Below are positions 4,229 through 39,708 of a stretch of DNA of 64,000 nucleotides, in pieces. Below the pieces are notes generated by a model. The model was given only the letters and a program-made list of their open reading frames with translations, did no database searches and was not told where the DNA came from. The stretch's first letter is position 1; each line of letters opens with the position of its first letter. The position numbers were made by a program, and so were the translations under genes. The stretch comes from an uncultured Acidimicrobiaceae bacterium (GTDB taxonomy: Bacteria; Actinomycetota; Acidimicrobiia; Acidimicrobiales; RAAP-2), in contig CAWGEX010000002.1 in the NCBI GenBank assembly GCA_963821755.1, positions 864,717-928,716 of the forward strand. The letters are read 5' to 3'.

Positions 4229-4291
4229 TGCGCCCAAGTCTACCGACGCTCCCGGACCTCCTTCGGGCGTGAACCGGTACGCTCCGCGTCC

Positions 4292-8477: not shown

Positions 8478-8542
8478 GGGAACACGCTAAGGAGCGACGG
8501 GGGTCACGGGGCGGGATGGCTCCCCGCGGCGTCGCGGCGTGG

Positions 8543-8785
8543 TTAGTCCTGCGGCGTCGTGGTCGGCGCAGCCTTCGCCTTACCCTTGCGCTCACCGTAC
8601 CGACGCTGGAAGCGCTCCACCCGTCCACCGGAGTCGACCAGCTTCTGCTTGCCCGTGAAGAACGGGTGGCACTCGTTGCACAGCTCGACGTGGAGATCGG
8701 CCTTGGTGGAGTGGGTCACGTAGGTGTTGCCGCACGAGCAACGTACGGTGGCCTCTACGTAGTTGGGGTGGATGTCAGCCTTCAT
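8543..8785 (-). CDS. rpmE: 50S ribosomal protein L31
   Basis: Last 80 codons of ORF 8543..9286: [67 protein letters not shown] at 8785. Confidence 0.95.
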
Positions 8786-8864
8786 GGTGTCTCCTGCGTC
8801 GTTTCGGTGGTCCATTGTATGGGTTGGCCTGTCGCTCCCGGCCGGGGCGCCGGCAGGGGCGTCC

Positions 8865-13325: not shown

Positions 13326-14634
13326 TCAAGAATCGAGGCGGATCAAATCGTCGAAGGTCTCTCGCCGCACGACCACGCGTGCACTCCCGTCCGCCACGAA
13401 CACCACGGCGGGGCGGGGCACCTTGTTGTAGTTGGATGCCATGGAGTAGCCGTAGGCGCCGGTGACCGGCGTGGCCAGGATGTCGCCGACCCGGAGATCC
13501 TCGGGCACGAAGGCCTCGGGGACGATGAGGTCTCCACTCTCGCAGTGCTTCCCGACCAGTCGGACCGAACGTGGCCGCGCCGCGCCGACGGCACGGGGCA
13601 GGAATGCCTCGTACCCGCTGCCGTACAGGACCGGCCGCGGATTGTCGCTCATGCCGCCGTCGACGCTGACATAGGTGCGGATGCCCGGGAGGTCCTTGAT
13701 CGTTCCCACCGTGTAGAGGGTGATGGCCGCCGCCGCCGCGATGGATCGACCGGGCTCGGCCGAGATCCGGGTGGCCGGGTCGACCCCGACCCGCGCGCAT
13801 GCAGCGCGGGTGACCCTCGCCCACTCGGCCTGGGTCGGGGCCGACTCGCCGTTGACATAGGGGACGCCGAGTCCGCCGCCGACCACGAGCTCGGGGAGAG
13901 CGAGCGGGGCGAAGAAGCCGCCCAGTACCTCGGCCGCCTGCTCGAACGAAGACGCTTCGAAGACCTGGCTGCCGATGTGCGCATGGACGCCGACGAGTTC
14001 AGCCCCCGGCAGCAGCTCGAGTGCGCCGACCGCTTGGGCGGCCGCGCCGGACAGCACCGAGAACCCGAATTTGGAATCCTCCTGTCCGGTCCGCACGAAT
14101 TCATGCGTGTGCGCCTCGACTCCCGGGGTGACCCGGACCAGGACCCGGGGCCGCTCACGACGTGCCGAGGGCCCGTCGAGCAATCGCCCCAGCCGGGTGA
14201 TCTCGTCAAAGGAGTCGACCACAATGCGGCCCACCCCACAGGCCAGGGCGTGGGCCAGCTCCTCTTCGGACTTGTTGTTGCCGTGGAGGACCAGCCGGTC
14301 CGCCGGCACACCCGCCGAGAGGGCGACGTGCAGCTCACCCCCCGACGCGAACATCGAGGTGCATGCCTTCTTCATGGGCCAACCGGGCCATCGCCCGGCA
14401 GAGGAAGGCCTTGGTGGCATAGGCCACCCCATCTCCCCAGGCCGCCACCGCCTCACGACAGGCGCGACGCAAGTGGTGCTCGTCGTAGACGAAGAGAGGT
14501 GTCCCGAACTCGGCGGCCAGGTCGAGCAGGTCGATATCGCCGACCCGCAGATGCCCGTTCCCCTCAACGGTTGAAGTCAGGGGCAGCAATGCTCGCTCGA
14601 CCGGGGCCGCGGCCACGGCAACATCTATAGGCAT
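13326..14634 (-). pseudogene. lysA: diaminopimelate decarboxylase interrupted by a 1-nt frame change
   Basis: ORF 14335..14634 encodes the LysA N-terminus, including the PLP-lysine context AYATKAFLC, and ends ...EGMHLDVRVGG-stop. ORF 13326..14567 is LysA only from FASGGELHVALSAGV onward (in-frame ATG at 14354). The two frames meet at gatgttcgcgtcgggggg (about 14338-14355), which contains a G6 run. Confidence 0.85.
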
Positions 14635-14712: not shown

Positions 14713-14787
14713 GCCCCCGTAGCTCAGCGGATAGAGCACCGGCCTCCGGAGCCGGTGGCGCAGGTTCGAGTCCTGCCGGGGGCGCCA
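14713..14787 (+). tRNA. tRNA-Arg (anticodon CCG), CCA encoded
   Basis: gcccccg ta gctc agcggata gagc a ccggc ctCCGga gccgg tggc gcagg ttcgagt cctgc cgggggc g cca. Full cloverleaf with a 7-bp acceptor stem and a GTTCGAGTC T-loop. Confidence 0.9.
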
Positions 14788-25636: not shown

Positions 25637-26914
25637 GTGTTGCTAGCGAGCACCTCGCTCGATGCCATTGGACGGAGCTTGCGAGAAAGCTTCTTCATGT
25701 TCTGGGAGACCCTCTGGCCGCTGGTCCTGGGCTTCGGCCTGTCTGGGGCGGTGCAAGCCTTCGTCAGTCGCGAGGCCATGCAGCGCAAGCTCGGCGATCA
25801 CAACCCGCCAGCCGTCGCCCGGGCCTCGTTCTACGGGATGGTCTCGTCCTCGTGCTCGTACGCCGCCTCGGCCATGTCGAAGTCTCTTTTCGTCAAGGGC
25901 GCCGACTTCGTCTCGGCCAATGTCTTCATGTTCGCGTCGACGAACCTGGTGGTCGAACTGGGCATCGTGCTCGTCGTGCTGATGGGGTGGCAGTTCGCAG
26001 CCAGCGAGTTCATCGGCGGCGTCATCATGATCGTGCTGTTTACCCTGCTCGCCAGCATGTGGTTGCGGGGTCGGCTCGTCGTACAGGCCCGGGAGCGCTT
26101 GGCGAGCACTGTCGATCACGGGCATCAGCACGGTCCACCCGAAAATGTGGCGCTCCAGCATGAGCCGTGGAGCACGCGTCTCCGGTCCAAAGCGGGTTGG
26201 GCCGATGCGGCGATCTACACCATGGGCGATCTGACCATGATCCGCAGAGAACTGGTGATCGGCTACGTCGTGGCCGGATTCGTGGCCAGCCTTGTGCCAG
26301 TCCACCTCTGGAACGCCGTGTTTATTCACGGCCACGGATTCTGGACCAGTCTCGAAAACGTGATCGTCGGGCCCTTCATCGCCATGATCAGTTTTGTGTG
26401 CTCGGTCGGCAATGTCCCCCTGGCCGCGGCATTGTGGAAGGGAGGCATCTCCTTCGGCGGGGTGATCTCCTTCATCTTCGGCGACCTCATAGCGCTTCCG
26501 CTCCTCCTCATCTACCGCCGCTTCTACGGCGGGCGACTCACGCTGAAGATGTTGGCCGTGTTCTGGACCGTGATGTCCGCAGCCGGGCTCATTACCGAGG
26601 GCATCTTCCGTGCGCTCGGTCTCGTACCGACCACTCGGCCGACCCAGATCGTGGCCGACCACTTCTCGTGGAATTACACGGCATATCTGAATCTTGTCTT
26701 CCTCGCCCTGTTCGGACTCCTCTACTGGACCTACCGGAACCGCGAGCGGCTGGGGGGAGGCGGAGGCCTCGCCGTCGATCCGGTCTGCGGAATGCAAATC
26801 GACCAGACCAGCGCGCCGGCATCGCTCGTGTATGCGGGAGAGCGCCTGTATTTCTGCTCCGACGGTTGCCGCAGCACGTTTGAGGCCAATTCCGCAAGGC
26901 TTGCCGCGGATTGA
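25637..26914 (+). CDS. permease (YraQ/ArsP-like, DUF318-type) fused to a C-terminal YHS/TRASH metal-binding domain
   Basis: 425 aa with about 8-10 hydrophobic helices. The C-terminus VDPVCGMQIDQTSAPASLVYAGERLYFCSDGCRSTFEANSARL is a YHS-domain signature. GTG start. Confidence 0.75.
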   Translation: MLLASTSLDAIGRSLRESFFMFWETLWPLVLGFGLSGAVQAFVSREAMQRKLGDHNPPAVARASFYGMVSSSCSYAASAMSKSLFVKGADFVSANVFMFASTNLVVELGIVLVVLMGWQFAASEFIGGVIMIVLFTLLASMWLRGRLVVQARERLASTVDHGHQHGPPENVALQHEPWSTRLRSKAGWADAAIYTMGDLTMIRRELVIGYVVAGFVASLVPVHLWNAVFIHGHGFWTSLENVIVGPFIAMISFVCSVGNVPLAAALWKGGISFGGVISFIFGDLIALPLLLIYRRFYGGRLTLKMLAVFWTVMSAAGLITEGIFRALGLVPTTRPTQIVADHFSWNYTAYLNLVFLALFGLLYWTYRNRERLGGGGGLAVDPVCGMQIDQTSAPASLVYAGERLYFCSDGCRSTFEANSARLAAD

Positions 26915-26918
26915 AATC

Positions 26919-26933
26919 TGCGAACGGTTCGCA
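26919..26933. promoter_or_regulatory. perfect 7-1-7 palindrome TGCGAACgGTTCGCA between the permease and the CDF gene
   Basis: Starts 5 nt after the permease stop and about 58 nt before the inferred CDF start. Could be an operator for a dimeric regulator or a short hairpin. Confidence 0.25.
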
Positions 26934-26990
26934 ACGTGCCGTGCGGTGCGTTCGGTACGAGACTGGCGATTGAAGACGGAGACGCACACC

Positions 26991-28034
26991 TTGTCAGAGA
27001 TCCACCCGCACACTCATGAACACAGCGGTCGAGACCATGATGAACACACGCGTGGGCTTGGCCACCTGGTGCGTGACCTCTTTGCACCCCACTCCCACGA
27101 TGCCAAGGACTCGCTTGATCAGGCGCTCGAGGGCAGCAGGGACGGCGTTCGGGCGGTCGCCATCTCTCTCGTCATCTTGCTTCTCACGGCCGGTGTCCAG
27201 GCCCTGGTGGTTGTGGTCAGCGGTTCAGTTGCTCTTCTTGGCGATACCTTCCACAACGGAGCGGATGCACTGACCGCCCTCCCGCTATGGATGGCCTTCA
27301 GTCTGGGCCGCCGGCCGGCCACGGAGCGCTTCACCTACGGATTCGGGAAAGCCGAGGACATTGCGGGATTGGCGGTCGTCGGATTCATCGCCCTGTCGGC
27401 TGCGCTGGCCGCCTACGAGGCCATCCACCGCCTCTTGCACCCTCAAACGATCACCCATCTACCGATTGTCATGGCCGCGGCGATCGTGGGGGCACTGGGG
27501 AACGAGGTCGTGGCGCAGTACCGAATCCGGATCGGACGGCGGATCGGATCAGCCGCTCTCGAGGCCGATGGGCTTCACGCCCGAACGGACGGCATCACAT
27601 CATTGCTCGTTCTTATCGGAGCCATCGCCGTCGCGTTGGGACTCCCGTGGGCCGACCCGGTCGTGGGACTCCTGATCACGGCCGCCATTTTGATCGTCCT
27701 CTTCCAAACGGTACGAAGTGTGGGTCAGCGCTTGCTCGATGCCGTTGATCCTCAGGTCGTCGCCCAGATCGCCGAGACGGTCGGTGGGGTCAATGGCGTT
27801 CTCGCTGTGAGCGAGGTCCGAGCTCGCTGGGCCGGTCATCGCCTGTTGGCCCAGGTGCGCCTGACCGTCGGCGGTGATCTGACGGTGGCCGAAGCCCACA
27901 AGGTTGCCGAGTTGGCTCACCACGAACTGCTCCACCATGTGCCGAATCTCTCCGATGCCATCATCCACGTCGATCCCGACGTCCCGGGAGCCGACCCCCA
28001 TGCCCTGACCGCTCACCACCTCCACGCTGACTGA
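26991..28034 (+). CDS. cation diffusion facilitator (CDF) family divalent-metal efflux transporter with a His-rich N-terminus
   Basis: In-frame part of ORF 26694..28034. The TTG at 26991 (GGAG about 10 nt upstream) gives LSEIHPHTHEHSGRDHDEHTRGLGH.... CDF motifs SGSVALLGDTFHNGADALT and RFTYGFGKAEDIAGL. Start is uncertain. Confidence 0.75.
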   Translation: MSEIHPHTHEHSGRDHDEHTRGLGHLVRDLFAPHSHDAKDSLDQALEGSRDGVRAVAISLVILLLTAGVQALVVVVSGSVALLGDTFHNGADALTALPLWMAFSLGRRPATERFTYGFGKAEDIAGLAVVGFIALSAALAAYEAIHRLLHPQTITHLPIVMAAAIVGALGNEVVAQYRIRIGRRIGSAALEADGLHARTDGITSLLVLIGAIAVALGLPWADPVVGLLITAAILIVLFQTVRSVGQRLLDAVDPQVVAQIAETVGGVNGVLAVSEVRARWAGHRLLAQVRLTVGGDLTVAEAHKVAELAHHELLHHVPNLSDAIIHVDPDVPGADPHALTAHHLHAD

Positions 28035-28674: not shown

Positions 28675-29388
28675 TTAGGTGTTGGCGCCGGTGGCCGTCT
28701 CGTCAAAGGCCTTACGCCGAGCCGCGGCCATGCGGTCGACACCTCCCGGGTTGAAGACGGCGAAGTCTCCCTCCGCCTCCACCGTGACCTCTCCCCCCTG
28801 GACGATTCGTCCCTGACTGAAGATCCGCCGCTCCGTAACCTCGGTCACCCAACCCTCGAACACCGCTTCCTCGCTGACCAGGGTGGGCCGGCGGTACCGC
28901 AGCTGCAGACGCACGGTGGGACCGGTGGCGCCGGCGATGGCGTTGGCTGCGGTGAGGATGATGTCGAAGGTGGCGGCCAGTGCGGCGCCGTGGACGCAGC
29001 CGGGTGCCCCTTCGTAACCGACGTCGAACGTGGCGTAGCCCAGCGCTTTGGGAGGGTCGAATTCGAGCCTCACCGGGAGGGCCAGTGGGTTGAACGCACC
29101 CACGATCAGGTCGAACGGCATCGACGAGCCGAGCGGCGGGTCACGCGGCGGGCCATCTTCCGCCGGGGCGATGAACCGGGGCAGCGGGAGTTGGGGGACA
29201 TGGGACTCCATGCGGTCAGCCACCGCGGTCAGCTGCGCGGTCAGCGCCGCTGTCTCTCTCGCCGAGGGCGCCGTGCTCACCGACAAGCGAATGAGGCGGC
29301 GCAACGCATCGGCCAGGTCCCGGGCTTCGGCTTGTCGGCCTTGCAGGCCGGGATGGTCCTCGAATGCGGGTGTCGGTTCAGCGGCCAC
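28675..29388 (-). CDS. PaaI-like hotdog-fold thioesterase-superfamily protein with N-terminal extension
   Basis: 237 aa. GYEGAPGCVHGAALAATFDIILTAA...RYRRPTLVSEEAVFEGWVTEVTERRIFSQGRIVQGGEVTVEAEGDF. Confidence 0.65.
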   Translation of the reverse strand: MAAEPTPAFEDHPGLQGRQAEARDLADALRRLIRLSVSTAPSARETAALTAQLTAVADRMESHVPQLPLPRFIAPAEDGPPRDPPLGSSMPFDLIVGAFNPLALPVRLEFDPPKALGYATFDVGYEGAPGCVHGAALAATFDIILTAANAIAGATGPTVRLQLRYRRPTLVSEEAVFEGWVTEVTERRIFSQGRIVQGGEVTVEAEGDFAVFNPGGVDRMAAARRKAFDETATGANT

Positions 29389-29412: not shown

Positions 29413-30879
29413 TCACGCCGTCCCCGTATGGCTCACCACTCGGAAGGTTCCGTCCTGCATGCGCCGCTGCAGGTACCGGCCGATCGTGTGGTGCTCGCTG
29501 ATCCAGGCGTCAAGCTCCGATGGCGCTGACGGCAGGTCCGAGAGCACCTGGCCGAAGGCCCGACGATGCACCGCGATGGCGTGGTGACACGGCTCCGACC
29601 CTTCGCCCTCACCCTGGGACCCCAGGAGGCAGATATCCCAAGGAGTTCCCGTCAGCCCCGCAATGGTTTCGCCGGCCGATCGGGCCTGATCGGCGGCCAA
29701 GGTGATCTCACCTTCGAAGCCGAGCACATGGGCGTAGCCGCGGTGCTCGGCCAGCTCGACCAGGTCCCGCCACGAGAGCACGCACCCCCGGTGGTGGTTC
29801 TCCGGCGTGGGCGTGACCGGCCGCTGTTCGACCCGCCAGGCGATGTCGAGCAGCCGCAATTCCTGCTGCCTCTCATCGAAGCGCTGGGCATCACCGTCGA
29901 AATTGAGGCAGACGATGGCGTCGAAGTAGGTGAACGGGCTGGCGAGCTGGCGCGCCGTCTGATTGAGGATGGCATCGGGATCCGCTTCGGGGATGGCGCC
30001 CAGCATCTCTCGGAAATGGGCCTCCATCGGCTCAATGTCCCAACCGATCTCGCCCCAGCCGATCCGATAATTGCGCACCCGGTCCTCCCAGGTGGGTCGG
30101 TACGGCGGGCCACTCGGCCGGGTGAAGCGGTGCACCCACCCCATCGCCGGATGGCAGAGCACGCGGCCCCCGCCCTGGCGAACTTTCTCGTGCAGGTATC
30201 CCTCCTCGCCCCCGAAACCCCGGAAGCGAGAGTTGATGCCCGGCCAGGCCTCGCGCCGGCAGGCGAACTGGCCCAGACCTTGCATGGGGATCTCGAACGG
30301 CCCAGCGGCGGCGTCGGCGAGGCGCGGGTCGGTGGCCCACTGCCCGTACATCCCATCGCTCCAGATGGGCTCGAAGTGTGTCCCCACCACGCTGGACAGG
30401 TCATCGGACAGCAGTGGCCCTTGGATCATGTCCCGGCTGGTCGGGTTCTCCTCGAAGTACTCCAGGAGGGCCCGGAGGGCCCCGGGCTTCAGGAGGACGT
30501 GCGAATCGAGGCAGCACACCACATCGGCATCGGCTTCTCGAAAGATCAGGTCGCGCGCCGCCGTACTGCGATACCCGCGGAACGGGACGTACCGCAGGCG
30601 GGGCACTCTCTCGTCGAGTCCTTTGAGGTCAGAGGCCGCCGCGCCCTCGGGGTGGTTGTCGAGGATGACGAACGACACCGCGTCGGCCACTTCGGGGTGG
30701 TACATGGCAATGGCCTGGACGGTGAACCACACGCCGTCGAAGTCGTCGAAGGTCGCCATACCGACGCACAGCCGGTGGTGCCCGACCGGAGGGGTCGCCT
30801 CGTGAATCGGGCGCGTGGACTCTTCTTCTTCCGAGAGCTTGCGCTCAAGATCAGCCAAGAACCGACGGGCCTCGGACAT
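29413..30879 (-). CDS. two-domain glycosyltransferase (N-terminal GT2-like; C-terminal GT25-like / unknown)
   Basis: 488 aa. N-domain VGMATFDDFDGVWFTVQAIAMYHP...SFVILDNHPEG...VVCCLDSHVLL (GT-A fold with DxH). C-domain FDAIVCLNFDGDAQRFDERQQEL...NHHRGCVLSWRDL resembles GT25-type domains. Confidence 0.7.
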   Translation of the reverse strand: MSEARRFLADLERKLSEEEESTRPIHEATPPVGHHRLCVGMATFDDFDGVWFTVQAIAMYHPEVADAVSFVILDNHPEGAAASDLKGLDERVPRLRYVPFRGYRSTAARDLIFREADADVVCCLDSHVLLKPGALRALLEYFEENPTSRDMIQGPLLSDDLSSVVGTHFEPIWSDGMYGQWATDPRLADAAAGPFEIPMQGLGQFACRREAWPGINSRFRGFGGEEGYLHEKVRQGGGRVLCHPAMGWVHRFTRPSGPPYRPTWEDRVRNYRIGWGEIGWDIEPMEAHFREMLGAIPEADPDAILNQTARQLASPFTYFDAIVCLNFDGDAQRFDERQQELRLLDIAWRVEQRPVTPTPENHHRGCVLSWRDLVELAEHRGYAHVLGFEGEITLAADQARSAGETIAGLTGTPWDICLLGSQGEGEGSEPCHHAIAVHRRAFGQVLSDLPSAPSELDAWISEHHTIGRYLQRRMQDGTFRVVSHTGTA

Positions 30880-30882
30880 CGG

Positions 30883-31212
30883 CTAGAAGAGACCGTTGCC
30901 GCTGCGGTAGCACGACACGCCCTCGGCATAGGCCGGGTCGTCCGACGGAATGAACCGGCCGTCACGGCACCAGACGCCGTTGAGCGGCAGCGGATCCCCG
31001 GTGATCTCGCCGTCTCGGGTCAGCTCGATGGTGGGGCGGAGGCGGTCCCACCAGACCCCGTACGGCAGGTGCTGGGCCTGGACGACGATCGGTCCCAGAT
31101 GATCGCGGGCGCTCGCGATCGCCGCGTAGGACGTGAACGGAAATGGCGCATCGCTGGGTTCGGTACCCACCACCGCGACGGCACTCGCGGTGTCGTGCAT
31201 CTCACGTATCAT
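30883..31212 (-). CDS. hypothetical protein (109 aa), first gene of the glycosyltransferase operon
   Basis: High third-position GC along the whole ORF. Its stop lies 3 nt before the GT start. I recognise no family. The start may be the second Met (31200). Confidence 0.55.
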   Translation of the reverse strand: MIREMHDTASAVAVVGTEPSDAPFPFTSYAAIASARDHLGPIVVQAQHLPYGVWWDRLRPTIELTRDGEITGDPLPLNGVWCRDGRFIPSDDPAYAEGVSCYRSGNGLF

Positions 31213-31220
31213 GCCAGTCG

Positions 31221-31484
31221 ATGACCAGTGTCCAGCGTCCGTCCCGGTGCGAGGGGCTTGAGGTCAACCAGGTGGCCGACGGGCTCGTCGTGTACCAGGC
31301 GGCTCCCGAGCAGGTGCACTACCTGAACAATACGTCTGCCGTCATCTTCGAGTTGTGCGAGGGTCACCGGTCCATTGAAGAGATCGCCGAACAGGTGCAG
31401 GACGTCTTCTCGCTCCCGGCACCCCCGGTCGACGAGGTCAAAGCGTGCGTGTCGGACCTGGTGGACAAGGCGGTCGTGCGATAG
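31221..31484 (+). CDS. PqqD-family protein (RiPP recognition element-like peptide chaperone)
   Basis: 87 aa from ATG 31221 in ORF 31143..31484: LEVNQVADGLVVYQAAPEQVHYLNNTSAVIFELCEGHRSIEEIAEQVQDVFSLPAPPVDEVKACVSDLVDKAVV. This is the canonical PqqD pattern (x-LN-x-t-a-x-i-x-x-l-x-d-G ... ei). Confidence 0.8.
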   Translation: MTSVQRPSRCEGLEVNQVADGLVVYQAAPEQVHYLNNTSAVIFELCEGHRSIEEIAEQVQDVFSLPAPPVDEVKACVSDLVDKAVVR

Positions 31485-32350
31485 CCGGCTTCCGCCTGCT
31501 CTGGCACCAGGTCGAGCTCAATACCGAGCAGGCCGATCCGGCGGTGGCAGAAGCCTTGCGCTATCTCGTCAACGGCGCCGAACATGACCGCCCCGCCTTG
31601 GCGGTCATGCACTACTCGGTCACCACGATGCCGGACGGTTCCCATGTCGTTTCCGAGGAAGGAGACGCACTGGATGCGGTTGACAGTGCCGACGGCGTGC
31701 TCGATCTCATCTATCGCCGGGTCCACCAGCGCGCCTTCGAGTTGGCTTCGCTGAGGGGCTGGGTGCGACTCCATGCCGCCGTCGTCGACGGGGCCGGGGG
31801 GCGGACACTCATCGTCGCCCCGTCGGGCACGGGAAAAACCACCTTGTCGTGCCGGCTGTTGCTCGACGGGGCGGCTGTCGCGGCCGACGAGAGCGTGATG
31901 ATCAGGGACGGGATCGCCCTGCCGGTGGCCCGGCGCTTCCACCTCAAGTCGGACATCGAAGCGGCGGTCCCCGACCTCCGCCCCTATGCGACCGGCCTTC
32001 CATCGCTCAACGGCGGATCGGTGAGGGCCTTCGATCCCAGTGAAGCGAATTTCCCCTGGTCCGTAAAAGAAGCCCAGGTGGCACACGTCGTGTTGCTTGA
32101 GCGGGGGGTGGAGCGATCCAGCTTGGCGCCCGGCAGCGCCGTTGCCGTGATGCCCGAGATCGTGGCTGAGTCGTTCCCCCATCAAGAACCTACGGGCGCC
32201 CTACTGGCCGAGATTGCCGCTGTGCTGTCACGGGCCCGATGCTGGCGCCTTCGGATGCATTCCGTGAATCGCGCTGCAACATTGGTAGCATCTCTGCCTG
32301 AGAGTCGACCGACGCAGTCGTCACGACCCAAAGGAGCACTGGATTCATGA
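31445..32350 (+). CDS. HPr kinase/phosphorylase-related P-loop kinase (HprK-related kinase type)
   Basis: 301 aa. LHAAVVDGAGGRTLIVAPSGTGKTTLSCRLLLDGAAVAADESVMI matches the HprK C-terminal-domain P-loop region. The start is uncertain (GTG 31445 overlaps the PqqD gene by 40 nt). The stop overlaps the next ATG (ATGA). Confidence 0.72.
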   Translation: MRVGPGGQGGRAIAGFRLLWHQVELNTEQADPAVAEALRYLVNGAEHDRPALAVMHYSVTTMPDGSHVVSEEGDALDAVDSADGVLDLIYRRVHQRAFELASLRGWVRLHAAVVDGAGGRTLIVAPSGTGKTTLSCRLLLDGAAVAADESVMIRDGIALPVARRFHLKSDIEAAVPDLRPYATGLPSLNGGSVRAFDPSEANFPWSVKEAQVAHVVLLERGVERSSLAPGSAVAVMPEIVAESFPHQEPTGALLAEIAAVLSRARCWRLRMHSVNRAATLVASLPESRPTQSSRPKGALDS

Positions 32351-32820
32351 GTGACCAGCACGAAACCGAGTCGACCGGCGATGACCGGCGAGCGTTTTTG
32401 AAGAAGATGGCCGCGGTGGGATTCGCGGTGCCGGTGGTCACGACCTTCGGTGTCGGCGGCGTCCAAGCGGCGTACGCCCAGACGGCCAACGCCTCGGGCA
32501 CCACGACGACCACGACCGCAGCCACGACCACCGTCGCTCCGACGACGACGACGACAACCACCAGCGACCACCGCGCCACCGACAACGACGACGACCACGA
32601 CGACGACTGCAAATCCCCACGTAGACCCCACCGGCGACCACGACGAACACTCGCCTCATTCCGTAGAGCGCTGGACTTCGCTGCGAGCCGGCGCACCGCT
32701 CACTCGACGGAGCAGTGTCCGGTGGCACCAGTGATTGCCCGAAGCCCGAGCGTCGGTGCGTACGCCGCGCTGAGTCGCTCGAACGTGCAGGGGCGATCTT
32801 CCATGGGTAGTTCGATATGA
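32347..32820 (+). CDS. small Tat-signal protein with Thr-rich, Asp/His-rich and Arg-rich low-complexity regions
   Basis: MSDQHETESTGDDRRAFLKKMAAVGFAVPVVTTFGVGGVQAAYA/QTANASGTTTTTTAATTTVAPTTTTTTTSDHRATDNDDDHDDDC.... Textbook RRxFLK twin-arginine motif plus h-region plus AxA. ATGA coupling at both ends. The reading frame of the 3' half is uncertain (see findings). Confidence 0.55.
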   Translation: MSDQHETESTGDDRRAFLKKMAAVGFAVPVVTTFGVGGVQAAYAQTANASGTTTTTTAATTTVAPTTTTTTTSDHRATDNDDDHDDDCKSPRRPHRRPRRTLASFRRALDFAASRRTAHSTEQCPVAPVIARSPSVGAYAALSRSNVQGRSSMGSSI

Positions 32821-33720
32821 CCGATCTCAGCGTCCTGTCTTCGCGCGCTTCGGTCGACCCCCGGGCGCGCCGCACGACCGCCCGAGGACCGATGGGACGG
32901 CGTTCTCCGCCTGGCTGCGGCCCATGACCTGCTGCCCGCCCTGTGGAGCGCGGGGCGGGAGCGGGGCTGGTGGACTGCCCTCCCGGCCGATGCGTTGGCC
33001 CAGGTGGCCGCTCACTTCGCCCCCGGATCGACCCACCCACGGCTGGTCCTGCAGCAGGCCTACGACGCCAACCGGCTCCGCGTGGCCGACCTGAGGGACC
33101 AGGGCGGGGTGATCCTCGAACATCTGGCCTCGGCCGGCATCGTCGCCGTCCCGCTGAAGGGATTGCACGCCCTGATGGCCGGCTGGTGGACCGATCCGGC
33201 GGATCGGGTCATGCGGGATCTCGACATTCTGGTGTCGAAGGATGACGCGGGACCAGCTTCGATATGTTTGGCCGAGCAGGGATACCTGCCATTCGCCACC
33301 GGACACACGGCCGCAGCCGACCACGAGCTGCCGGCCGTGGCGCTGCCCGGGCGCGCCGGTTCGGTCGAATTGCACACCGCGCTGGTGGTGAGTCGATGGA
33401 GTGCGGTGCTGCCCGGAGCCGAGGTCCTTGACCGCGGACCGTTGATGTCGTCCACCGATGCCGTGATCCACTCGATCGCTCACGCCCAACTCCACGATGA
33501 GGCCCACCTCCTGGCCCGGATCCCGCTGCGGGCGCTTCACGAGCTGATGATTCTGGCCGCAGGACCTCGAGGTGATGAGATCGACTGGGCACGGGTGCGC
33601 ACGGCGTTCCGTAGGGTCTCGGCCGAAGCCGCGTTGGACGCGCACCTGTCGCCAAGCACGTTCCCTCTTTGGTGCATCGGTCCCTCCTCCCGTTGGTCGG
33701 CTACGGCCTCTGGCGCATGA
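32817..33720 (+). CDS. nucleotidyltransferase-family protein (PF14907/NTP_transf_5-like) with an ambiguous, apparently frameshifted 5' end
   Basis: The listed ORF 32995..33720 extends upstream in the same frame to 32821 (…DRWDGVLRLAAAHDLLPALW..., VAVPLKGLHALMAGWWTDPADRVMRDLDILV..., ELHTALV) but has no start codon there. The only ATG (32817, ATGA-coupled to the upstream stop) is in the -1 frame. Confidence 0.65.
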
Positions 33721-34015
33721 CCGACTCTGCCGTACCTTCGTGAGCCACCCACCTCTGGCGTCGATCTACGAACGAACCGCTTTCCTTCCCCGTGGCCTCT
33801 CGACGGAGCGCATGCACGAGCTCCATGGCCCCGGGAGTCCGTGGATCTCGCGAGTACGCCATGCCGCCGCACGCCCTTCACCGCATGGCCAGTTCACGGC
33901 GCACTGACACCGGATCGGCCTCGGTCGACCCTCAGCATCGCCATCGTCGACCCTGGCGTCGCACCCGGCGCCGACGCCGGCGGGATCAGCGCCCGCCCGT
34001 CCCTAACATGGCGTG

Positions 34016-34456
34016 ATGCCCACCGACCACGCCGTCAGTTTCACCAGTGGAAGTCCCGAGACCGTGCTCGAACCCTTGAGCCCCGGATTGACTCAAGCCC
34101 TTGAGGCGGCGCTGGCCCTTCCGGCGGGCGAACGGCGGGCCGCCGTCTCGGCGGTGGCGGCGCAAGACCCGCGCTGCCTGCAGGCCTGGGCCACCCTGGC
34201 TGAGTTGGCCGACACCGACATCGATCGCTACGCCTTCGCTCGGGTGGGCTATCACCGAGGGCTGGACGCCCTTCGGGCCGCCGGGTGGCGCGGATCGGGC
34301 TACGTGCGCTGGCGCCATGAGTCCAATCGCGGCTTTCTGCGCTCCCTGCACGCCCTGGAACAGGCGGCCGAGGCCATCGGCGAAATGGACGAGGCCCAGC
34401 GTTGCGCCCTTTTTCTGCGCCAACTCGACCCGGAGTGGGGAGCTCGCGCGCTGTAG
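34016..34456 (+). CDS. DUF3151-family protein
   Basis: About 146 aa. CLQAWATLAELADTDIDRYAFARVGYHRGLDALRAAGWRGSGYVRWRHESNRGFLRSLHAL is typical of actinobacterial DUF3151. Confidence 0.75.
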   Translation: MPTDHAVSFTSGSPETVLEPLSPGLTQALEAALALPAGERRAAVSAVAAQDPRCLQAWATLAELADTDIDRYAFARVGYHRGLDALRAAGWRGSGYVRWRHESNRGFLRSLHALEQAAEAIGEMDEAQRCALFLRQLDPEWGARAL

Positions 34457-34471
34457 TTAGCGACTCTAACT
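34455..34471. promoter_or_regulatory. 6-5-6 inverted repeat AGTTAGcgactCTAACT, candidate MarR operator
   Basis: Ends 3 nt before the marR ATG (34474). Confidence 0.35.
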
Positions 34472-34473
34472 GT

Positions 34474-34980
34474 ATGATGGTCAAAATGTCTGTGTCTCCC
34501 CCCACCGTGACATCCACGCGAACGGCGGCGCGAGCGCGGCGCGACGGACCCACCCCCGGCGCCTACGGCCGGGTGGCCGCATGGCTGTCGAAGCGAGTCG
34601 AAGTGGCGCTGACGCAAGTCGATCTGACCCTGCCCCAATACCGGGTCCTGGGGATTCTGGCCGAGGGTTCCAATGCCGCCTCCGGGCTGGCGGGCCGCCT
34701 GGCCGTGCGGCCTCCTTCGGTCACCGCTCTGATCGACGGTCTGGTGGCCCGGGATCTGGTCGAGCGCAAGCAGGAGGAGGGCGATCGGCGGCGCATTGCG
34801 CTGTGCCTGACTCCCGCCGGGGTGCGCATCGTGGCCGAAGCGGACCTCATGCTCGACGCCTACATCACCTCGATCGCCGCCACCCTGCCCGCCGAAGACG
34901 AAGTGGCCGCGCTCGGCTCGCTCGAACTGTGGGGACACGCTCTGTCCAATTTCCACCAGCAGCGGGCGAAGTCACAATGA
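34474..34980 (+). CDS. MarR-family transcriptional regulator
   Basis: In-frame part of ORF 34402..34980 from MMVKM. LTLPQYRVLGILAEGSNAASGLAGRLAVRPPSVTALIDGLVARDLVERKQEEGDRRRIALCLTPAG. Confidence 0.85.
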   Translation: MMVKMSVSPPTVTSTRTAARARRDGPTPGAYGRVAAWLSKRVEVALTQVDLTLPQYRVLGILAEGSNAASGLAGRLAVRPPSVTALIDGLVARDLVERKQEEGDRRRIALCLTPAGVRIVAEADLMLDAYITSIAATLPAEDEVAALGSLELWGHALSNFHQQRAKSQ

Positions 34981-36956
34981 GCACCACCGAGGACAAGGTC
35001 GACGGCGTCATCACCGACGAACCTTCGGTGGCCGCATCCACCGACCGGGACGTGACCCGTCAGCTCCCTGTGGCCGCCTACGTCCCCATGGGGGTGACCT
35101 CCGAATACGAGGCGCCTCGTGCGACGATCAACCCCGATACCTCGAAGTCCTGGTTGAAGCGGGCCTTCCCGATTGTGGCGTCGCACAAGGGCCCGTTCCT
35201 GATCGCCCTCATCCTCTCCTTCGTGGGATTGCTGCTCCAGGTGGCGGTGCCCCAGGTCCTCAATGACGCGTTGACCAACTCCCTCGGGAAGGTTCCGACC
35301 GTCCCGCTGCACTACTACGTCTACTGGGTGCTGGCGCTCGGAATTGTCGGTGCCATCGCCGGGTACTTCTCACGCACGTACCTGTTCAGAGTGGCCTATG
35401 CCATCGAGTTCGACCTGCGCAATTCCATCTATGAACACCTCACCCGCATGTCGTTCCCGTTCTACGACCGGGTGCAGTCGGGGCAGCTGATCTCGAGGGC
35501 CAATTCGGACATCCGCTCGGTCCAGATGTACCTGACGTTCGCTCCCATGATCCTGGTCCAGTGCTCCATCGCCGTCGTCGCCTTCTGCGTCATGCTCACC
35601 ATCAGCGTCCCGCTCGCCCTCGTCGCCATGGTGACCATGCCCTTCATCTACTGGGTCGGTGTGAGGATGCGGAACAACCTCTTCCCGGTGTCGTGGATCA
35701 TCCAGTCGCGCCTGGCCGAAGTGGCCACGGTGGTCGACGAGAACGTCAGCGGCGTGCGGGTCGTGAAGTCCTTCGCCGCCGAGGAGCAGCAGCTTCGGCA
35801 GTTGGCCGGCGCGGCGGACAAGGTGCAATGGGGCTACATCAAGGATGCCGATCTCCGGGCCCGATTCACGCCGCTGATCCAGAACCTGTCGCAGGTCGGC
35901 CTGGTCCTGGTCCTGATCTTCGGCGGCTACATGGTCATTCAGGGATCGCTGGGGGTCGGCGCCATCCTCGAGTTCAACATCTACCTCCTCATGATGCAGG
36001 CCCCGTTCATGATGCTCGGCATGCTGATCATGATGGGCCAGCGAGCCGCCGCCTCGGCCGAGCGGATCTACGAGATCCTGGACGAGCAGGCCACCATCGT
36101 CGATCGGCCTGATGCGCTCGATCTCACCGACAGCCGCGGCGACGTCCGCTTCGAGGATGTGCGCTTCGCCTACGGCTCGGACAGCCGCGTTGCCCGCTCA
36201 GTCGAAGACGGCGGCAATCCAGACGTGCTGTCCGACTTCAACCTCCACCTGCGCTCCGGCGAGACCGTGGCGCTGGTCGGGCGGACCGGCAGCGGGAAGT
36301 CCACCATCGCCCGACTGGTGGCTCGCTTCTACGACGTCAGTGACGGCACGGTCATGGTCGATGGGCACGATGTCCGCGACCTCACCCTCACCAGCCTGCG
36401 GGCCAACATCGGTGTCGTCCTCGACGAGCCGTTCCTCTTCTCGGTCTCCATCCGCGACAACATCGCCTACGGGCGTCCCGACGCCTCCGATGAGGCGATC
36501 ATGGCCGCCGCCCGCTCGGCCGGGGCCGACGGGTTCATCCAGCACCTCGCCCAGGGGTACGACACCGTGGTGGGCGAGCGTGGGTACACGCTCTCAGGTG
36601 GCCAGCGTCAGCGCATCGCCATCGCCCGGGCCCTGCTGATCAATCCGCCCATCCTGATCCTCGACGACGCCACCAGCGCCATCGACGTCAAGGTGGAACA
36701 GCAGATCCACGGGGCACTGCGGGTCCTGATGGAAGGCCGCACCACCCTCATCGTGGCCCACCGGCTCTCCACCATCAGCTTGGCCGATCGCGTCGTGCTG
36801 CTCGACGGCGGCCAGATCGTGGCCGACGGCACCCACGCCGAACTGCTGGCCTCGACGCCCTTGTACTCAGAGGTCCTGGCCCAGGCGGCCCAGGACGACG
36901 GCGCGGCGGACGGCGACATCATCGAAGACATCGACGCCGAGCTCGGAGCCCACTGA
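34977..36956 (+). CDS. ABC transporter, fused permease/ATP-binding subunit (type I exporter), subunit 1 of a likely heterodimer
   Basis: ATG 34977 overlaps the marR stop. Six TM-like helices, then an NBD: Walker A GRTGSGKST, signature LSGGQRQR, Walker B ILILDDATSA. Confidence 0.9.
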   Translation: MSTTEDKVDGVITDEPSVAASTDRDVTRQLPVAAYVPMGVTSEYEAPRATINPDTSKSWLKRAFPIVASHKGPFLIALILSFVGLLLQVAVPQVLNDALTNSLGKVPTVPLHYYVYWVLALGIVGAIAGYFSRTYLFRVAYAIEFDLRNSIYEHLTRMSFPFYDRVQSGQLISRANSDIRSVQMYLTFAPMILVQCSIAVVAFCVMLTISVPLALVAMVTMPFIYWVGVRMRNNLFPVSWIIQSRLAEVATVVDENVSGVRVVKSFAAEEQQLRQLAGAADKVQWGYIKDADLRARFTPLIQNLSQVGLVLVLIFGGYMVIQGSLGVGAILEFNIYLLMMQAPFMMLGMLIMMGQRAAASAERIYEILDEQATIVDRPDALDLTDSRGDVRFEDVRFAYGSDSRVARSVEDGGNPDVLSDFNLHLRSGETVALVGRTGSGKSTIARLVARFYDVSDGTVMVDGHDVRDLTLTSLRANIGVVLDEPFLFSVSIRDNIAYGRPDASDEAIMAAARSAGADGFIQHLAQGYDTVVGERGYTLSGGQRQRIAIARALLINPPILILDDATSAIDVKVEQQIHGALRVLMEGRTTLIVAHRLSTISLADRVVLLDGGQIVADGTHAELLASTPLYSEVLAQAAQDDGAADGDIIEDIDAELGAH

Positions 36957-38878
36957 TGGGGTTCATGGGTGGTGGTCCGGGCATGGGCGGCGGGGGCGCC
37001 GCCGGGGCGGCGCAGGCCGGACTGCCCTTCGGGGGCATCCCGCCGGAGTTGCAGGCCGGGGTCGACCTCCTGCTGGCCGAGGAGCCCGACCGCGGCGAAT
37101 CCGACATCACGTTCACGCATCAGGCGTCGGCCCACGAGAAGGAGCGGCTGAGCTTGAGGAGCCTCCTCCTCGAGTACCCCGGCATGCTGGTGCTGGCCGT
37201 CGTGCTGGTGGGGATCATCGCCGTGGCCACGCAGCTCGGCCCCAAGCTCACCGGTATCGCCATCGACGGCGGCATGGAGCCGGGCCACCACGACTTCGGC
37301 TTTGTGGTGTTGATCGGATGCCTCTACCTGCTCTCGGTCGTGGTCTCCGCCGTGGCCCAGTGGGGCCAGGTCAGGGTGACCGGCCGGCTCGCCTCCTGGG
37401 TGATGAACGACCTCAGGGTCACCATTTTCCGCCATCTGCAACGCCTCTCCCTCGACTTCTTCACCGAGGAGAAGGCGGGCGTGGTCATGAGCCGGATGAC
37501 CAGTGACATCGAGAACCTGCAGCAACTCCTCCAGGACGGTCTGGCCCAATTCGCCGTGCAGGGCCTGACCATGGTGGTGATCGCCATCTTCATGTTCACC
37601 ACCAACGTGCGGCTCGCCATCATCACCATCGTGGTGGTCATCCCCCCGCTGGTCATCATGTCCGTGTGGTTCAAGCGGGCCTCCGAGCGCGGGTACGACA
37701 AGGTCCGTGACGGCATCGCCCTGGTGCTGGCCGATCTCTCCGAGAGCCTGCAGGGTGTGCGCATCGTCACCGCCCACAACCGGCAACAGCACAACGTCGT
37801 GAACCACCGCAACGTGGTCGGTCGCTATCGCGACGCCAACAACTACACCGGGCGTCTCAACGGCATTTACGGTCCCGGCTCACAGCTCCTCGGCGTGATC
37901 GGCCAGGTCGTGATCCTGGCTGTCGGCGGCGAGATGGTGCTGCACCACCAACTCCAGGTGGGCGCGCTGGTCACCTTCTTCCTCTACGTGAACCGTTTCT
38001 TCCAGCCGATCCAGCTGCTGGTGCAGCAGTACAACTCGTACCAGCAAGGTCAGGCGTCCGTAATCAAGTTGCGCACCCTGATGGAGAACGAGCCGACCGT
38101 GTCCGAAAGTGCCGATGCGATCGAACTCCCGCCCATCCGCGGGGAGATCCGGTTCGACCACGTCTCCTTCGGGTACGACCCGGACGTCCCGGTCCTGAGT
38201 GACATCGACCTGCTCATCGAGCCCGGCGAGACGGTGGCCTTCGTGGGCGCCACCGGAGCCGGAAAGTCGACGATGGCCAAGCTGGTGACCCGCTTCTACG
38301 ACCCCACCGACGGCCGGGTCATGATCGACGGCCACGATCTGCGCACCGTGTCATTGACCTCGTTGCGCAGCCAACTCGGGGTGGTGCCCCAAGAACCGTT
38401 CCTTTTCGCCGGGACCATCCGCGACAACATCTCTTTCGCCCGGCCCGGCGCGCCCGATGACGCCGTATGGGAAGCCGTGCACACGGTGGGCCTGACCGAA
38501 TTGATCCAACAACTCCCCTACGGCCTCGATACCGCCGTGCACGAACGCGGGCAGTCGCTCTCCTCGGGGGAACGCCAACTCATCGCCCTGGCCCGGGCCT
38601 TCATGGCCCAGCCCCGGGTCCTGGTGCTGGACGAGGCCACGTCCAACCTCGACCTGCAGTCCGAAACCATGATCGAGGCGGCCCTCGACGTCCTCTTGCA
38701 GTCACGGACGGCCGTGCTGATCGCCCACCGGCTGTCGACGGCCATGCGGGCCGATCGCATCGTGGTGGTCGGCGACGGGCGGTTGCTCGAGCAGGGCTCG
38801 CACGACGAGCTGATCGCCCTGGGCGGGCACTACGCCGAGATGTACGAAACCTGGATCTCCCAGTCGCACGCCGCCTGA
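36956..38878 (+). CDS. ABC transporter, fused permease/ATP-binding subunit, subunit 2
   Basis: 640 aa. Walker A GATGAGKST, signature LSSGERQL, Walker B VLVLDEATSN. Start overlaps the stop of subunit 1. Confidence 0.9.
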   Translation: MGFMGGGPGMGGGGAAGAAQAGLPFGGIPPELQAGVDLLLAEEPDRGESDITFTHQASAHEKERLSLRSLLLEYPGMLVLAVVLVGIIAVATQLGPKLTGIAIDGGMEPGHHDFGFVVLIGCLYLLSVVVSAVAQWGQVRVTGRLASWVMNDLRVTIFRHLQRLSLDFFTEEKAGVVMSRMTSDIENLQQLLQDGLAQFAVQGLTMVVIAIFMFTTNVRLAIITIVVVIPPLVIMSVWFKRASERGYDKVRDGIALVLADLSESLQGVRIVTAHNRQQHNVVNHRNVVGRYRDANNYTGRLNGIYGPGSQLLGVIGQVVILAVGGEMVLHHQLQVGALVTFFLYVNRFFQPIQLLVQQYNSYQQGQASVIKLRTLMENEPTVSESADAIELPPIRGEIRFDHVSFGYDPDVPVLSDIDLLIEPGETVAFVGATGAGKSTMAKLVTRFYDPTDGRVMIDGHDLRTVSLTSLRSQLGVVPQEPFLFAGTIRDNISFARPGAPDDAVWEAVHTVGLTELIQQLPYGLDTAVHERGQSLSSGERQLIALARAFMAQPRVLVLDEATSNLDLQSETMIEAALDVLLQSRTAVLIAHRLSTAMRADRIVVVGDGRLLEQGSHDELIALGGHYAEMYETWISQSHAA

Positions 38879-38942: not shown

Positions 38943-39708
38943 TCATGGGATGCCGGTGGCCCGGCTCCACTCCGCCAAGGTGCCGCGGTACCGTACGTCC
39001 CATTCGTCGTAGGCGACTCGTAGCTGGCGGCCCGGCCACCGGGGTGGCTGCAACTCTTCGGGGAGCAGCGGGTCGGCCTGCAGGTGGCGCAGTACCGCGG
39101 CGGAGAGGGCGAACCCCGGTGCCAGCACCTCGGGCCCGACCGGTGGGAGGGCCTGCAGCCGGTCCAACAGGGCGAAGGAACGCGTCGACCATTCCTCCAG
39201 CTCCCACAACCGCGCCGCCAACCGCCGGGCGTCGGAGGGTCGGGCCGACATGAACTCGACATCACCATCGAGCCCGGGGATGGTCGAGAGAGGACCGGCC
39301 AGGTTGTCGGGGCGCATCCAGACGCCCTCACGCAGCTCGGCCAGCCGGGCGTAGGCGAGGGCGCGACGACGCTCCGACCGCACGTCGGCCGTGCTGCCCG
39401 ACGTCGTGACCACGGCCAACCGCCACTGCCCGGCGTAGTCCGTCGTCACGCCCTGATCGGCTGGCCGACTGGCGTGACCGGCGAGCCATCAGGTGCCCGG
39501 CCAATCGATAGCGCCCCGATCCGTCCGTGGTCGCCTCGCCGCCGGCCACCATGCGGCTCAGAGCCACCCGGGCCCGGTTCTCGCTGATCCCGAACAGGCC
39601 GGTCAGGCGTACCAATTGGGCCACCGGCAGCTCGGGGGGATCCATGCCCAGCAGGGCGCTGGCCAGGACCGAACGGGCCGTGAATGGTGTATTACTCTCT
39701 TGCGTCAC
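38943..39708 (-). pseudogene. PaaX-family transcriptional regulator interrupted by a 1-nt frame change
   Basis: ORF 39328..39708 holds the N-terminal wHTH (ARSVLASALLGMDPPELPVAQLVRLTGLFGISENRARVALSRMVAGGE...GRYRLAGHLMARRSRQSA). ORF 38943..39449 is the PaaX C-domain (DYAGQWRLAVVTT...GVWMRPDNL...) in another frame. The junction is at about 39440-39470. Confidence 0.7.

Follow-up and report, generated by a model that had tools for sequence, protein, structure and literature searches.

A predicted RRE-dependent peptide modification system with Tat-type leaders and threonine-rich cores in an uncultured Acidimicrobiaceae bacterium

A 64,000-nucleotide stretch of DNA from an uncultured Acidimicrobiaceae bacterium (GenBank assembly GCA_963821755.1, contig CAWGEX010000002.1, positions 864,717 to 928,716 of the forward strand; below, the window, to which coordinates refer unless a related locus is named) carries a gene cassette that probably encodes a system for the modification of a ribosomal peptide, dependent on a leader-recognition element (RRE). 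The cassette includes genes for a PqqD-family protein, the putative RRE, and for a small threonine-rich open reading frame (ORF), the likely substrate, together with those for a glycosyltransferase (GT), an HprK-like kinase and a nucleotidyltransferase. To judge from its sequence conservation, the small ORF belongs to a dedicated peptide family defined by a leader that resembles a twin-arginine translocation (Tat) signal, and at the loci that carry this leader the PqqD protein and a family 2 glycosyltransferase (GT2) are near-constant companions.

Conservation of the leader and diversity of the cores

The precursor gene of the window begins at 32347 on the plus strand. Its leader (32347-32505, MSDQHETESTGDDRRAFLKKMAAVGFAVPVVTTFGVGGVQAAYAQTANASGTT) has an intact reading frame and follows, over about the first 45 residues, a plan that starts with an acidic N-terminus and DRRAFLKK and goes on to a hydrophobic stretch with FAVPVV(S/T)(S/T)F and an AxA-type site, AYA↓QT (the arrow marks the predicted cleavage). 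On inspection of the sequence, the signal region, DRRAFLKK followed by MAAVGFAVPVVTTFGVGGVQAAYA↓QT, has the features of a Tat signal. The residues after the leader of this precursor of about 93 amino acids (aa) are almost pure threonine, and the peptides of the window clade keep 'ANASG' right behind the predicted cleavage site. A Shine-Dalgarno sequence, AAGGAG (32331..32336, + strand), can be read 10 nt 5' of the ATG, and the similar sequences AAGGGAG and AAGGGG precede both precursor copies of the related locus L001. Among close relatives the leader codons show 2-8 synonymous versus 0-1 non-synonymous changes, which points to purifying selection on the leader and thus argues that the reading frame is real. 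A Pfam search with the threonine-rich ORF gave a sub-threshold compositional match alone (New_glue, 23 bits versus 31).

A word-index search with the kinase found 58 homologues, nearly all of them metagenomic; an exact look-up of the kinase sequence of the window returned no record, its start codon probably being called differently. The gene contexts of six relatives with kinase identities from 89% to 35% (L001, L002, L003, L006/L007, L008 and L009) were examined, and all six have the order PqqD, kinase, small ORF and PF14907 nucleotidyltransferase with at least one GT2 nearby, the small ORF of L008 being present though uncalled in the annotation. The proposal of the first-pass annotation of the window that the threonine-rich ORF is the substrate is strengthened by the presence of a comparable Tat-leader ORF beside glycosyltransferases in every homologous cassette examined. 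The relatives encode precursors of 92-97 aa with a shared N-terminal plan, in which an acidic start is followed by (D/G/S)RR(A/G/S/R)F(L/I)K(K/R), by (F/V)(A/V)(V/A)PV(V/I)(S/T)(S/T)F and mostly by an A-x-A/AQ site, and beyond the leader the sequences diverge into mostly Thr/Ser/Pro-rich tracts. The source labels of relatives are Acidimicrobiia/Acidimicrobiales, Streptomycetaceae, Solirubrobacteraceae and Frankia. The distant relatives L004 and L005 were among the matches listed in a P-loop pattern scan of genome contigs.

A profile of the leader retrieved 107 proteins of 54-104 aa, with no long ones among them and none with a Pfam domain or a name, and a leader scan of metagenomes yielded 80 loci from soil, peat and freshwater samples. 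In 23 diverse leaders no variation was seen at R14, R15, F17, P29 and F34, and the arginine pair and the phenylalanine are invariant also in the 107 proteins. The cores of the family are hypervariable (Thr 26%; Ser, Pro and Ala about 10% each) and fall into several types: poly-Thr in the window clade, and elsewhere Ser/Thr-rich cores that contain PNQ or PNS, non-Thr cores in which xNQ is repeated up to seven times, or very short cores that end in an N-x-S/T-like motif, which occurs in nearly all short cores. Asparagine may be the modification site in parts of the family. In some relatives (L085, L088, L089 and L091) the same leader is carried by folded domains of 170-220 aa. Taken as a whole, the arrangement is that of a peptide synthesized on the ribosome and modified after translation (RiPP): the precursor is short, its leader is conserved and its core hypervariable, and an RRE and tailoring enzymes are encoded in the same cluster.

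Two further observations concern individual precursors. Repeated (P/S/G/A)NQ in cores with no Thr tract was seen in P0133, P0135, P0139, P0140, P0142 and P0162, and at L041 (1128-1490, up to seven) and L048 (522-863). Tandem precursor genes were found at L001 (two, 4125-4409 and 4534-4812), L053 (two, 1325-1887) and L076 (up to four profile matches, 7887-8870); multi-copy precursors with varied cores are a trait typical of RiPP clusters.

Constant and accessory partners of the leader

Partners were counted by searching the six-frame ORFs of all leader loci with a hidden Markov model for each partner family, and a well-flanked set of 22 leader-centred loci, with 1.5 kb or more of sequence to either side, was used for comparison. 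A PqqD protein is encoded at 22 of the 22 well-flanked loci and a GT2 at 20, as opposed to 10 for the kinase and 6 for the nucleotidyltransferase; where the sequence extends 1.2 kb or more on the downstream side of the precursor, 42 of 45 loci have a GT2. The core module therefore comprises PqqD, the precursor and GT2, and the kinase/nucleotidyltransferase pair is accessory, belonging to the window clade and some others. The kinase-containing triad is thus not at the centre of the system: PqqD and GT2 are near-constant, whereas the kinase occurs at about half and the nucleotidyltransferase at about a quarter of the loci.

A different accessory set was observed at L091 (7614-13651) and also at L089, where the genes for PqqD and a 220-aa leader protein precede those for LicD, an NTP-transferase/aminotransferase fusion, a methyltransferase and GT1. 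At L091 this LicD-cytidylyltransferase-aminotransferase-methyltransferase-GT1 set stands in place of the kinase/PF14907 pair, which suggests that a folded protein bearing this leader is decorated with phospho-alcohols.

Organization of the cassette in the window

The window has a G+C content of about 67%. The gene layout was read from its ORF table and families were assigned by profile searches (Pfam, NCBIfam), with the following result for the cassette:

31221..31484, + strand: stand-alone PqqD-family protein of 87 aa (PF05402, 31.9 bits versus a gathering score of 23.4, residues 29-83)
31445..32350, + strand: P-loop kinase of the HprK/PEPCK fold (Walker A motif APSGTGKTT; precomputed Pfam assignment PF27840 'ScmC')
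32347..32624, + strand: precursor peptide gene, leader intact and poly-Thr core frame-shifted, kept in all relatives
32347..32820, + strand: 157-codon ORF as first described; about the first 72 codons are the conserved peptide, the remainder runs out of frame across the former intergenic region
32817..33923, + strand: disrupted gene of a PF14907 (NTP_transf_5) nucleotidyltransferase (80.4 bits versus a gathering score of 31.2)
29413..30879, - strand: two-domain glycosyltransferase of 488 aa, N-terminal GT2 (GT-A) and C-terminal GT25-like
30883..31212, - strand: 109-aa protein homologous to about the first 65 residues of GT32 (Gly_transf_sug) enzymes

The ORF table agrees with the first-pass annotation in the positions of the PqqD-like protein, of the kinase, which contains APSGTGKTT, and of the threonine-rich ORF, in the ATGA overlap between the kinase stop and the start of that ORF, in the distance of 8 nt between the divergent start codons (31212 and 31221), and in the minus-strand series of a 109-aa ORF, a GT2 protein and two hotdog thioesterases, the latter beginning 24 nt past the glycosyltransferase. 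Its family assignments held in part: PqqD and NTP_transf_5 pass the Pfam thresholds, whereas the kinase and the PqqD protein fall below the cut-offs of the HPr-rel-A models. The nucleotidyltransferase had to be redrawn, as the interval 32817..33720 proposed for it has 904 nt, which is no multiple of 3, and the ATG at 32817 is out of frame with the PF14907 body and runs into a stop after 36 codons. The length of 157 codons and the downstream ATGA coupling of the threonine-rich ORF likewise turned out to be frameshift artefacts; in the relatives the peptide of 92-97 aa is followed by a gap of 80-160 nt.

Disrupted reading frames

Frameshifts were located by alignment of the window with four relatives that are about 93% identical to it (L001, L012, L013 and L014). 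Two frame-shifting indels, one at about 32563 and one at about 32607, lie in the poly-Thr core; read out of frame, the second poly-Thr block, TT(A/V)PPTTTTTTTTT, gives SDHRATDNDDDHDDD, and the conserved tail LQIPT with its stop is found in a third frame, ending at 32624. We considered programmed frameshifting within the poly-Thr tract and dismissed it, since one continuous frame encodes the peptide in the four close relatives. The nucleotidyltransferase gene has single-base insertions at 32844, 33650 and 33869, and with these three removed it encodes a protein starting MTDLSVLSSALRS (MTDLSVLSSALRSTPGR...) that aligns over its full length with homologues of 363-385 aa. All five cassette indels are absent from the four relatives. 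The other alignable DNA, about 10-12 kb, holds one further frame-breaking indel, a +1 insertion at about 39451 that is absent from L001 and L013 and splits a PaaX-like gene (38943-39708, - strand) into ORFs at 38943-39449 and 39328-39708 (- strand). A survey of the whole window for frame switches in the G+C content of third codon positions flagged the precursor alone and missed the known frameshifts of the nucleotidyltransferase and PaaX-like genes, and is hence too insensitive to tell an assembly error from a pseudogene.

On these alignments the copy in the window would be either decaying or mis-assembled. The chance that the cassette is a decaying remnant here, with the precursor and the nucleotidyltransferase reduced to pseudogenes and no product formed, is in our view only slightly short of even. 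The two indels of the precursor core and the three +1 insertions of the nucleotidyltransferase, none of them shared by the relatives, speak for decay, as does their clustering: five of the six frame-breaking indels fall within about 1.5 kb, which a uniform error model would, by our estimate, produce with a probability of roughly 2e-4. The GT25-like domain, too, has a degenerate EDD motif. All four single-base changes, however, are +1 insertions, resembling systematic sequencing error, and the PaaX-like gene outside the cassette is split likewise; the same sequence also lies on a contig of more than 1 Mb, as is usual for long-read metagenome assemblies, the ACS repeats that encode threonine are difficult to assemble, and the genes for PqqD, the kinase, the glycosyltransferase and the 109-aa protein are all intact. 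There are probably better copies to study than the frame-shifted one of the window.

Glycosyltransferases and their fusions

The N-terminal GT2 domain of the glycosyltransferase in the window has the motif D125-S-H127, which is invariant in both family alignments. The AlphaFold2 model of the enzyme (pLDDT 87.8) has its best Foldseek match in the collagen galactosyltransferase COLGALT1 (E = 1e-14), followed by the mucin-type polypeptide N-acetylgalactosaminyltransferases (ppGalNAc-Ts) T2, T4, T10 and T12 (E about 1e-12, TM 0.43-0.44), and the family profile also matches COLGALT1, weakly (E = 3e-4). PF01755 (GT25) is precomputed on the relatives P0216, P0273 and P0282. A single-sequence search of the PDB with this glycosyltransferase gave no match, and no PDB sequence match to SunS was obtained.

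The family of this enzyme has more than 1,200 members, many with a C-terminal PqqD domain. At L038 (1338-3932) a glycosyltransferase, PqqD and GT2 are joined within a single reading frame, and at the Frankia locus L092 (3485-5687, GCA_016786355.1) a fusion of GT2/GT25-like and PqqD parts is directly followed by a 169-aa Tat-leader ORF with TTTLVP/TTTPAP repeats. Neither kinase nor nucleotidyltransferase was found at the Frankia fusion locus, which by its gene content looks like a minimal two-gene form of the system.

In most other clades the enzyme adjacent to the precursor is a GT2-TPR protein, whose profile matches GmaR (E = 4e-39), SunS (E = 8e-27) and a chain of PDB entry 7msk (E = 2e-26), which we take to be ThuS. 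A close kinship of the glycosyltransferase in the window with these GT2-TPR (SunS/GmaR) enzymes was rejected, the hhalign probability being 3.5%. The 109-aa protein matches the N-terminus of GT32 (Gly_transf_sug) with a hmmsearch domain E of 6e-13 and is without the DXD catalytic region; full GT32 enzymes hold the position of its gene, divergent from PqqD, in other clades.

Kinase and nucleotidyltransferase

Residues G128, G130, K131, T132, T133, D148 and E149 of the kinase are invariant across its family. The initial description of the enzyme as HprK-like is upheld by sequence, the family profile aligning to HprK (PDB 1ko7) over the P-loop and the ADD acidic-pair region with E = 2e-4, and by the predicted fold, the AlphaFold2 model (pLDDT 90.6) matching ATP-dependent PEPCK (E = 1e-7) and HprK/P (E = 2e-6) in Foldseek. 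The Pfam profile search gave no match for the kinase, and its best NCBIfam match is TIGR04352 (HprK-related kinase A), at 43.3 bits versus a cut-off of 200. The PqqD protein scores 24.9 bits with TIGR04353 (PqqD_rel_X), the cut-off of which is 35, and PqqD itself (TIGR03859) ranks first. Judged by these cut-offs, the cassette is akin to the HPr-rel-A system without belonging to it. At E <= 1e-30 the kinase clade has 157 members in a library of 1.84 billion representatives. Since GT1, Mannosyl_trans3 or methyltransferase domains occur in fusion with some relatives of the kinase (P0296, P0293, P0401 and P0354), the kinase can be tied to glycan building, and its target may be a glycan rather than a peptide hydroxyl.

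The nucleotidyltransferase has the motifs PLKG and RDLDILV and thus, besides its PF14907 profile match, the G-x and DxD motifs of nucleotidyltransferases. HprK homologues are reported to phosphorylate lasso-peptide precursors (PMC8498205), and PsmN, an 'uncharacterised nucleotidyltransferase', is required to put one or two hexoses on that phosphate (PMC6993621). Nucleotidylylation of the threonine-rich peptide, which had been suggested for the window, appears less likely than sugar transfer to phosphate, because the addition of hexose to phosphate by PsmN is the sole experimentally linked activity alongside an HprK-like peptide kinase.

Proposed pathway and alternative explanations

In the pathway that we propose, the stand-alone PqqD protein would bind the leader in the cytoplasm and present the core to the enzymes, and the GT2/GT25-like enzyme would O-glycosylate threonine residues of the core, in mucin-type fashion and still in the cytoplasm. 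The HprK/PEPCK-fold kinase would phosphorylate a hydroxyl on the peptide or on its sugars, and the PF14907 enzyme would put a hexose onto that phosphate, in the manner of PsmN. The finished glycopeptide would leave via the Tat pathway and signal peptidase would cut off the leader. In a bolder form of this proposal, which we put forward tentatively, PqqD would be a new kind of Tat-signal-binding chaperone and the signal peptide would double as a RiPP leader, the precursor being held in the cytoplasm while its poly-Thr core receives a mucin-type O-glycan, or in some clades a phosphoglycan for which the kinase and the PF14907 enzyme are responsible, and then released to the Tat translocon.

A number of points weigh against this pathway. 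Gene content, family assignments, the conservation of the peptide, its co-occurrence with PqqD and GT2, the fusions and the similarities of fold are shown by the analysis; the product, the enzyme activities, the order of the steps, the binding of the leader and the export are all predicted from sequence. In the window itself, both the precursor gene and the nucleotidyltransferase gene are frame-shifted. About half or more of the related loci lack the kinase and the nucleotidyltransferase, whose role is an accessory one, with the peptide or the sugar as target. Many related cores are not Thr-rich and have N-x-S/T or repeated PNQ motifs, and the modified residue may differ among clades or may not be threonine. 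The GT25-like domain has FEGEITL (about residues 385-395) as opposed to LEDDAVF in distant relatives, the EDD being lost in the window, L001 and L002; the domain is also C-terminally truncated in the window and likewise in L002, and is probably catalytically dead in the window clade. The GT-A fold is widespread, and model-based matches to ppGalNAc-Ts at a TM of about 0.44 are no proof of polypeptide specificity. Finally, the hydrophobic region is conserved unusually strongly for a Tat signal, and the leader might be a recognition sequence alone.

This last point would suit the main alternative, in which the N-terminal region is an RRE-recognition leader that merely resembles a Tat signal, and the peptide is exported otherwise, for instance by the two downstream ABC exporters after proteolysis. 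The hydrophobic region is indeed far more conserved than usual signal peptides, with P29, F34 and FAVPVV(S/T)(S/T)F invariant, and in the window, L001 and L002 the cassette is succeeded by a MarR gene and an ABC exporter pair, an ABC pair being found near L011 as well. Yet the arginine pair and the phenylalanine at +2 are invariant and the motif fits the Tat consensus, (S/T)RRxFLK; an A-x-A/AQ site is seen in most of the family; L003, L006, L008 and L009 lack the ABC pair; no leader peptidase or peptidase-containing transporter was found in any locus examined; and in L085, L088, L089 and L091 this leader precedes folded domains of 170-220 aa, which fits Tat export. We consider this alternative rather doubtful.

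Assignment of the window to the catalogued HPr-rel-A system (PqqD_rel_X, HprK-related kinase A and a nucleotidyltransferase), with the threonine-rich ORF as its missing substrate, would account for the same three families and for the nearest NCBIfam models, which are TIGR04352 for the kinase and, after TIGR03859, TIGR04353 for the PqqD protein. This membership, raised for the window at the outset, is improbable, as both scores are far below the curated cut-offs (43.3 versus 200 and 24.9 versus 35), Pfam places the kinase in another family (PF27840 'ScmC'), and the constant partners of the peptide are PqqD and GT2, not the triad. GC-rich genomes yield many long spurious ORFs, dozens of them in the window, and the New_glue match of the threonine-rich ORF is compositional and sub-threshold; the ORF could on these grounds be a chance GC-rich frame or an ordinary secreted Thr-rich protein, glycosylated extracellularly and unrelated to its neighbours. 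Such an explanation is hardly credible in view of a leader conserved in 107 proteins and 80 loci, the synonymous changes of its codons, the Shine-Dalgarno sequence, and the fixed place of the gene between the kinase and the nucleotidyltransferase or GT2, with PqqD alongside in 22 of 22 loci.

Neighbouring genes

Two genes that adjoin the minus-strand operon encode thioesterases:

28675..29388, - strand: hotdog (4HBT) thioesterase, present in L001 and L002 and not in L003, L006, L008 and L009
28230..28742, - strand: YbgC/FadM-type acyl-CoA thioesterase (4HBT_2), a neighbour in the closest relatives alone

On the other side, 3' of the cassette (34013-38878, + strand), there are genes for DUF3151, a MarR regulator and two ABC exporters (ABC_membrane and ABC_tran). 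This block is syntenic in L001 and L002 and not in more distant relatives; a link to export is possible and unsupported. The thioesterases, DUF3151, MarR and the ABC exporters were set aside as parts of the system, being syntenic in the closest relatives alone. Upstream of the thioesterases, at 25637-28034 (+ strand), are a 425-aa membrane protein ending in the Cys-rich motif CGMQID...YFCSDGC and an adjoining ORF whose C-terminal part is cation-diffusion-facilitator-like and whose N-terminus is His-rich; read by eye, both genes look like metal-handling functions unrelated to the cassette. Rfam and tRNA scans of the window gave nothing pertinent to the cassette. They placed a tRNA-Met (CAT) at 13747-13830 (- strand) and a tRNA-Arg (CCG) at 14713-14787 (+ strand), the second one alone reaching the Rfam gathering threshold.

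Implications

In the literature covered, which leaves most subscription journals outside, neither this gene set nor a family of Thr-rich precursors with Tat leaders was found to be described. RRE-dependent peptide modification is a known kind of process, and what is new is the precursor family. RRE-glycosyltransferase fusions have been flagged by RRE-Finder genome mining as uncharacterised candidate RiPP pathways (PMC7470986, PMC12710340), and a substrate family is now proposed for these orphan fusions. A signal peptide that doubles as a RiPP leader, as suggested here, would join RiPP leader recognition and Tat quality control, and HprK-like peptide kinases and PF14907 enzymes would gain a concrete job beyond lasso peptides. 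Poly-Thr peptides that are densely O-glycosylated, and possibly phosphoglycosylated, would be what mucins or antifreeze glycopeptides are in other organisms, transposed to bacteria, and such products could bear on the cell surface or on the desiccation or ice tolerance of soil and peat Actinomycetota; the enzymes could serve as tools for the production of defined glycopeptides. Should PqqD act as a Tat-signal chaperone, the system would be the first case in bacteria of mucin-type polypeptide glycosylation that takes place in the cytoplasm and is coupled to Tat export; it would also constitute a new class of RiPPs, widespread among soil Actinomycetota.

Comparison with known systems

Phosphorylated and phosphoglycosylated lasso peptides (paeninodin with PadeK; pseudomycoidin with PsmK and PsmN) resemble the system predicted here in an HprK-family kinase acting on a ribosomal precursor and in a nucleotidyltransferase for the hexose on the phosphate (PMC6993621), PsmN and the PF14907 enzyme being likened by description. 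The PqqD-type RRE of lasso systems (B1) binds the leader (PMC8498205). Unlike lasso clusters, the loci examined here have no Asn-synthetase-like cyclase (C) or transglutaminase-like B2 protease; the lack of a lasso cyclase and a leader protease, noted at first for the window, extends to the called genes of the region of the window that was scanned and of L001-L003, L006, L008 and L009. Lasso peptides have a short core with a C-terminal serine, as opposed to about 45 threonine residues here, and the present system differs further in its Tat-type leader and in a dedicated polypeptide glycosyltransferase, so predicted, as constant partner.

The glycocins, with the S/O-glycosyltransferases SunS and ThuS, and the Listeria flagellin O-GlcNAc transferase GmaR are similar in that a GT2-TPR enzyme adjoins the precursor in most clades of the family; SunS, ThuS and GmaR glycosylate ribosomal peptides or proteins in the cytoplasm. 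The glycosyltransferase of the window, however, is another, two-domain GT2/GT25-like enzyme, and an adjacent enzyme of the SunS/ThuS type is found in other clades alone. The cores of the window clade are without cysteine and would thus form no disulphide-stapled helix-loop-helix, the leader is of the RRxFLK and not of the double-glycine type, and no C39-peptidase ABC transporter was found at the loci examined. An RRE is present here, whereas glycocin pathways, to our knowledge, lack one.

The HPr-rel-A system (TIGR04352/TIGR04353) and the SynChlorMet cassette (ScmC/ScmD) share the pair of PqqD-like and HprK-like P-loop proteins and provide the nearest curated models. The SynChlorMet cassette has radical SAM/SPASM enzymes, which do not occur here, and the scores of the window with the HPr-rel-A models are far below the equivalog cut-offs. 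We know of no Tat-leader peptide or GT2 in the definition of either of them.

The best structural matches of the glycosyltransferase are enzymes of eukaryotic mucin-type O-glycosylation (ppGalNAc-Ts, GT27) and COLGALT1 (GT25), and a Thr-rich tandem tract as substrate is a further parallel. COLGALT1 also has two GT-A domains, and the D-S-H metal-binding motif, invariant in the family of the window enzyme, recalls the ppGalNAc-Ts, which use DxH. The identity is as low as 13-19%, and the enzyme of the window is bacterial, predicted to be cytoplasmic and without a lectin domain, with EDD lost in its clade. A conceptual likeness is offered by the core-M3 pathway of alpha-dystroglycan (the kinase POMK and the LicD-type transferases fukutin/FKRP), in which a Thr-rich mucin-like tract is O-glycosylated, the sugar is phosphorylated by a kinase, and enzymes of the nucleotidyltransferase fold extend the phosphate. 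The replacement of the kinase and the PF14907 enzyme by LicD at L091 and the fusion of kinase relatives to glycosyltransferases are the counterparts here, with homology shown at the level of the fold class.

Tat proofreading chaperones (TorD, DmsD and NapD) bind signal peptides in the cytoplasm ahead of export, and serine-rich repeat adhesins (GtfA/B, accessory Sec) are glycosylated in the cytoplasm ahead of export. PqqD is unrelated to TorD and NapD, Tat export here being predicted from sequence, and the adhesins are far larger than the peptides of this family. The likeness lies in the proposal itself, according to which PqqD would stay on the Tat-type leader while the core is glycosylated.

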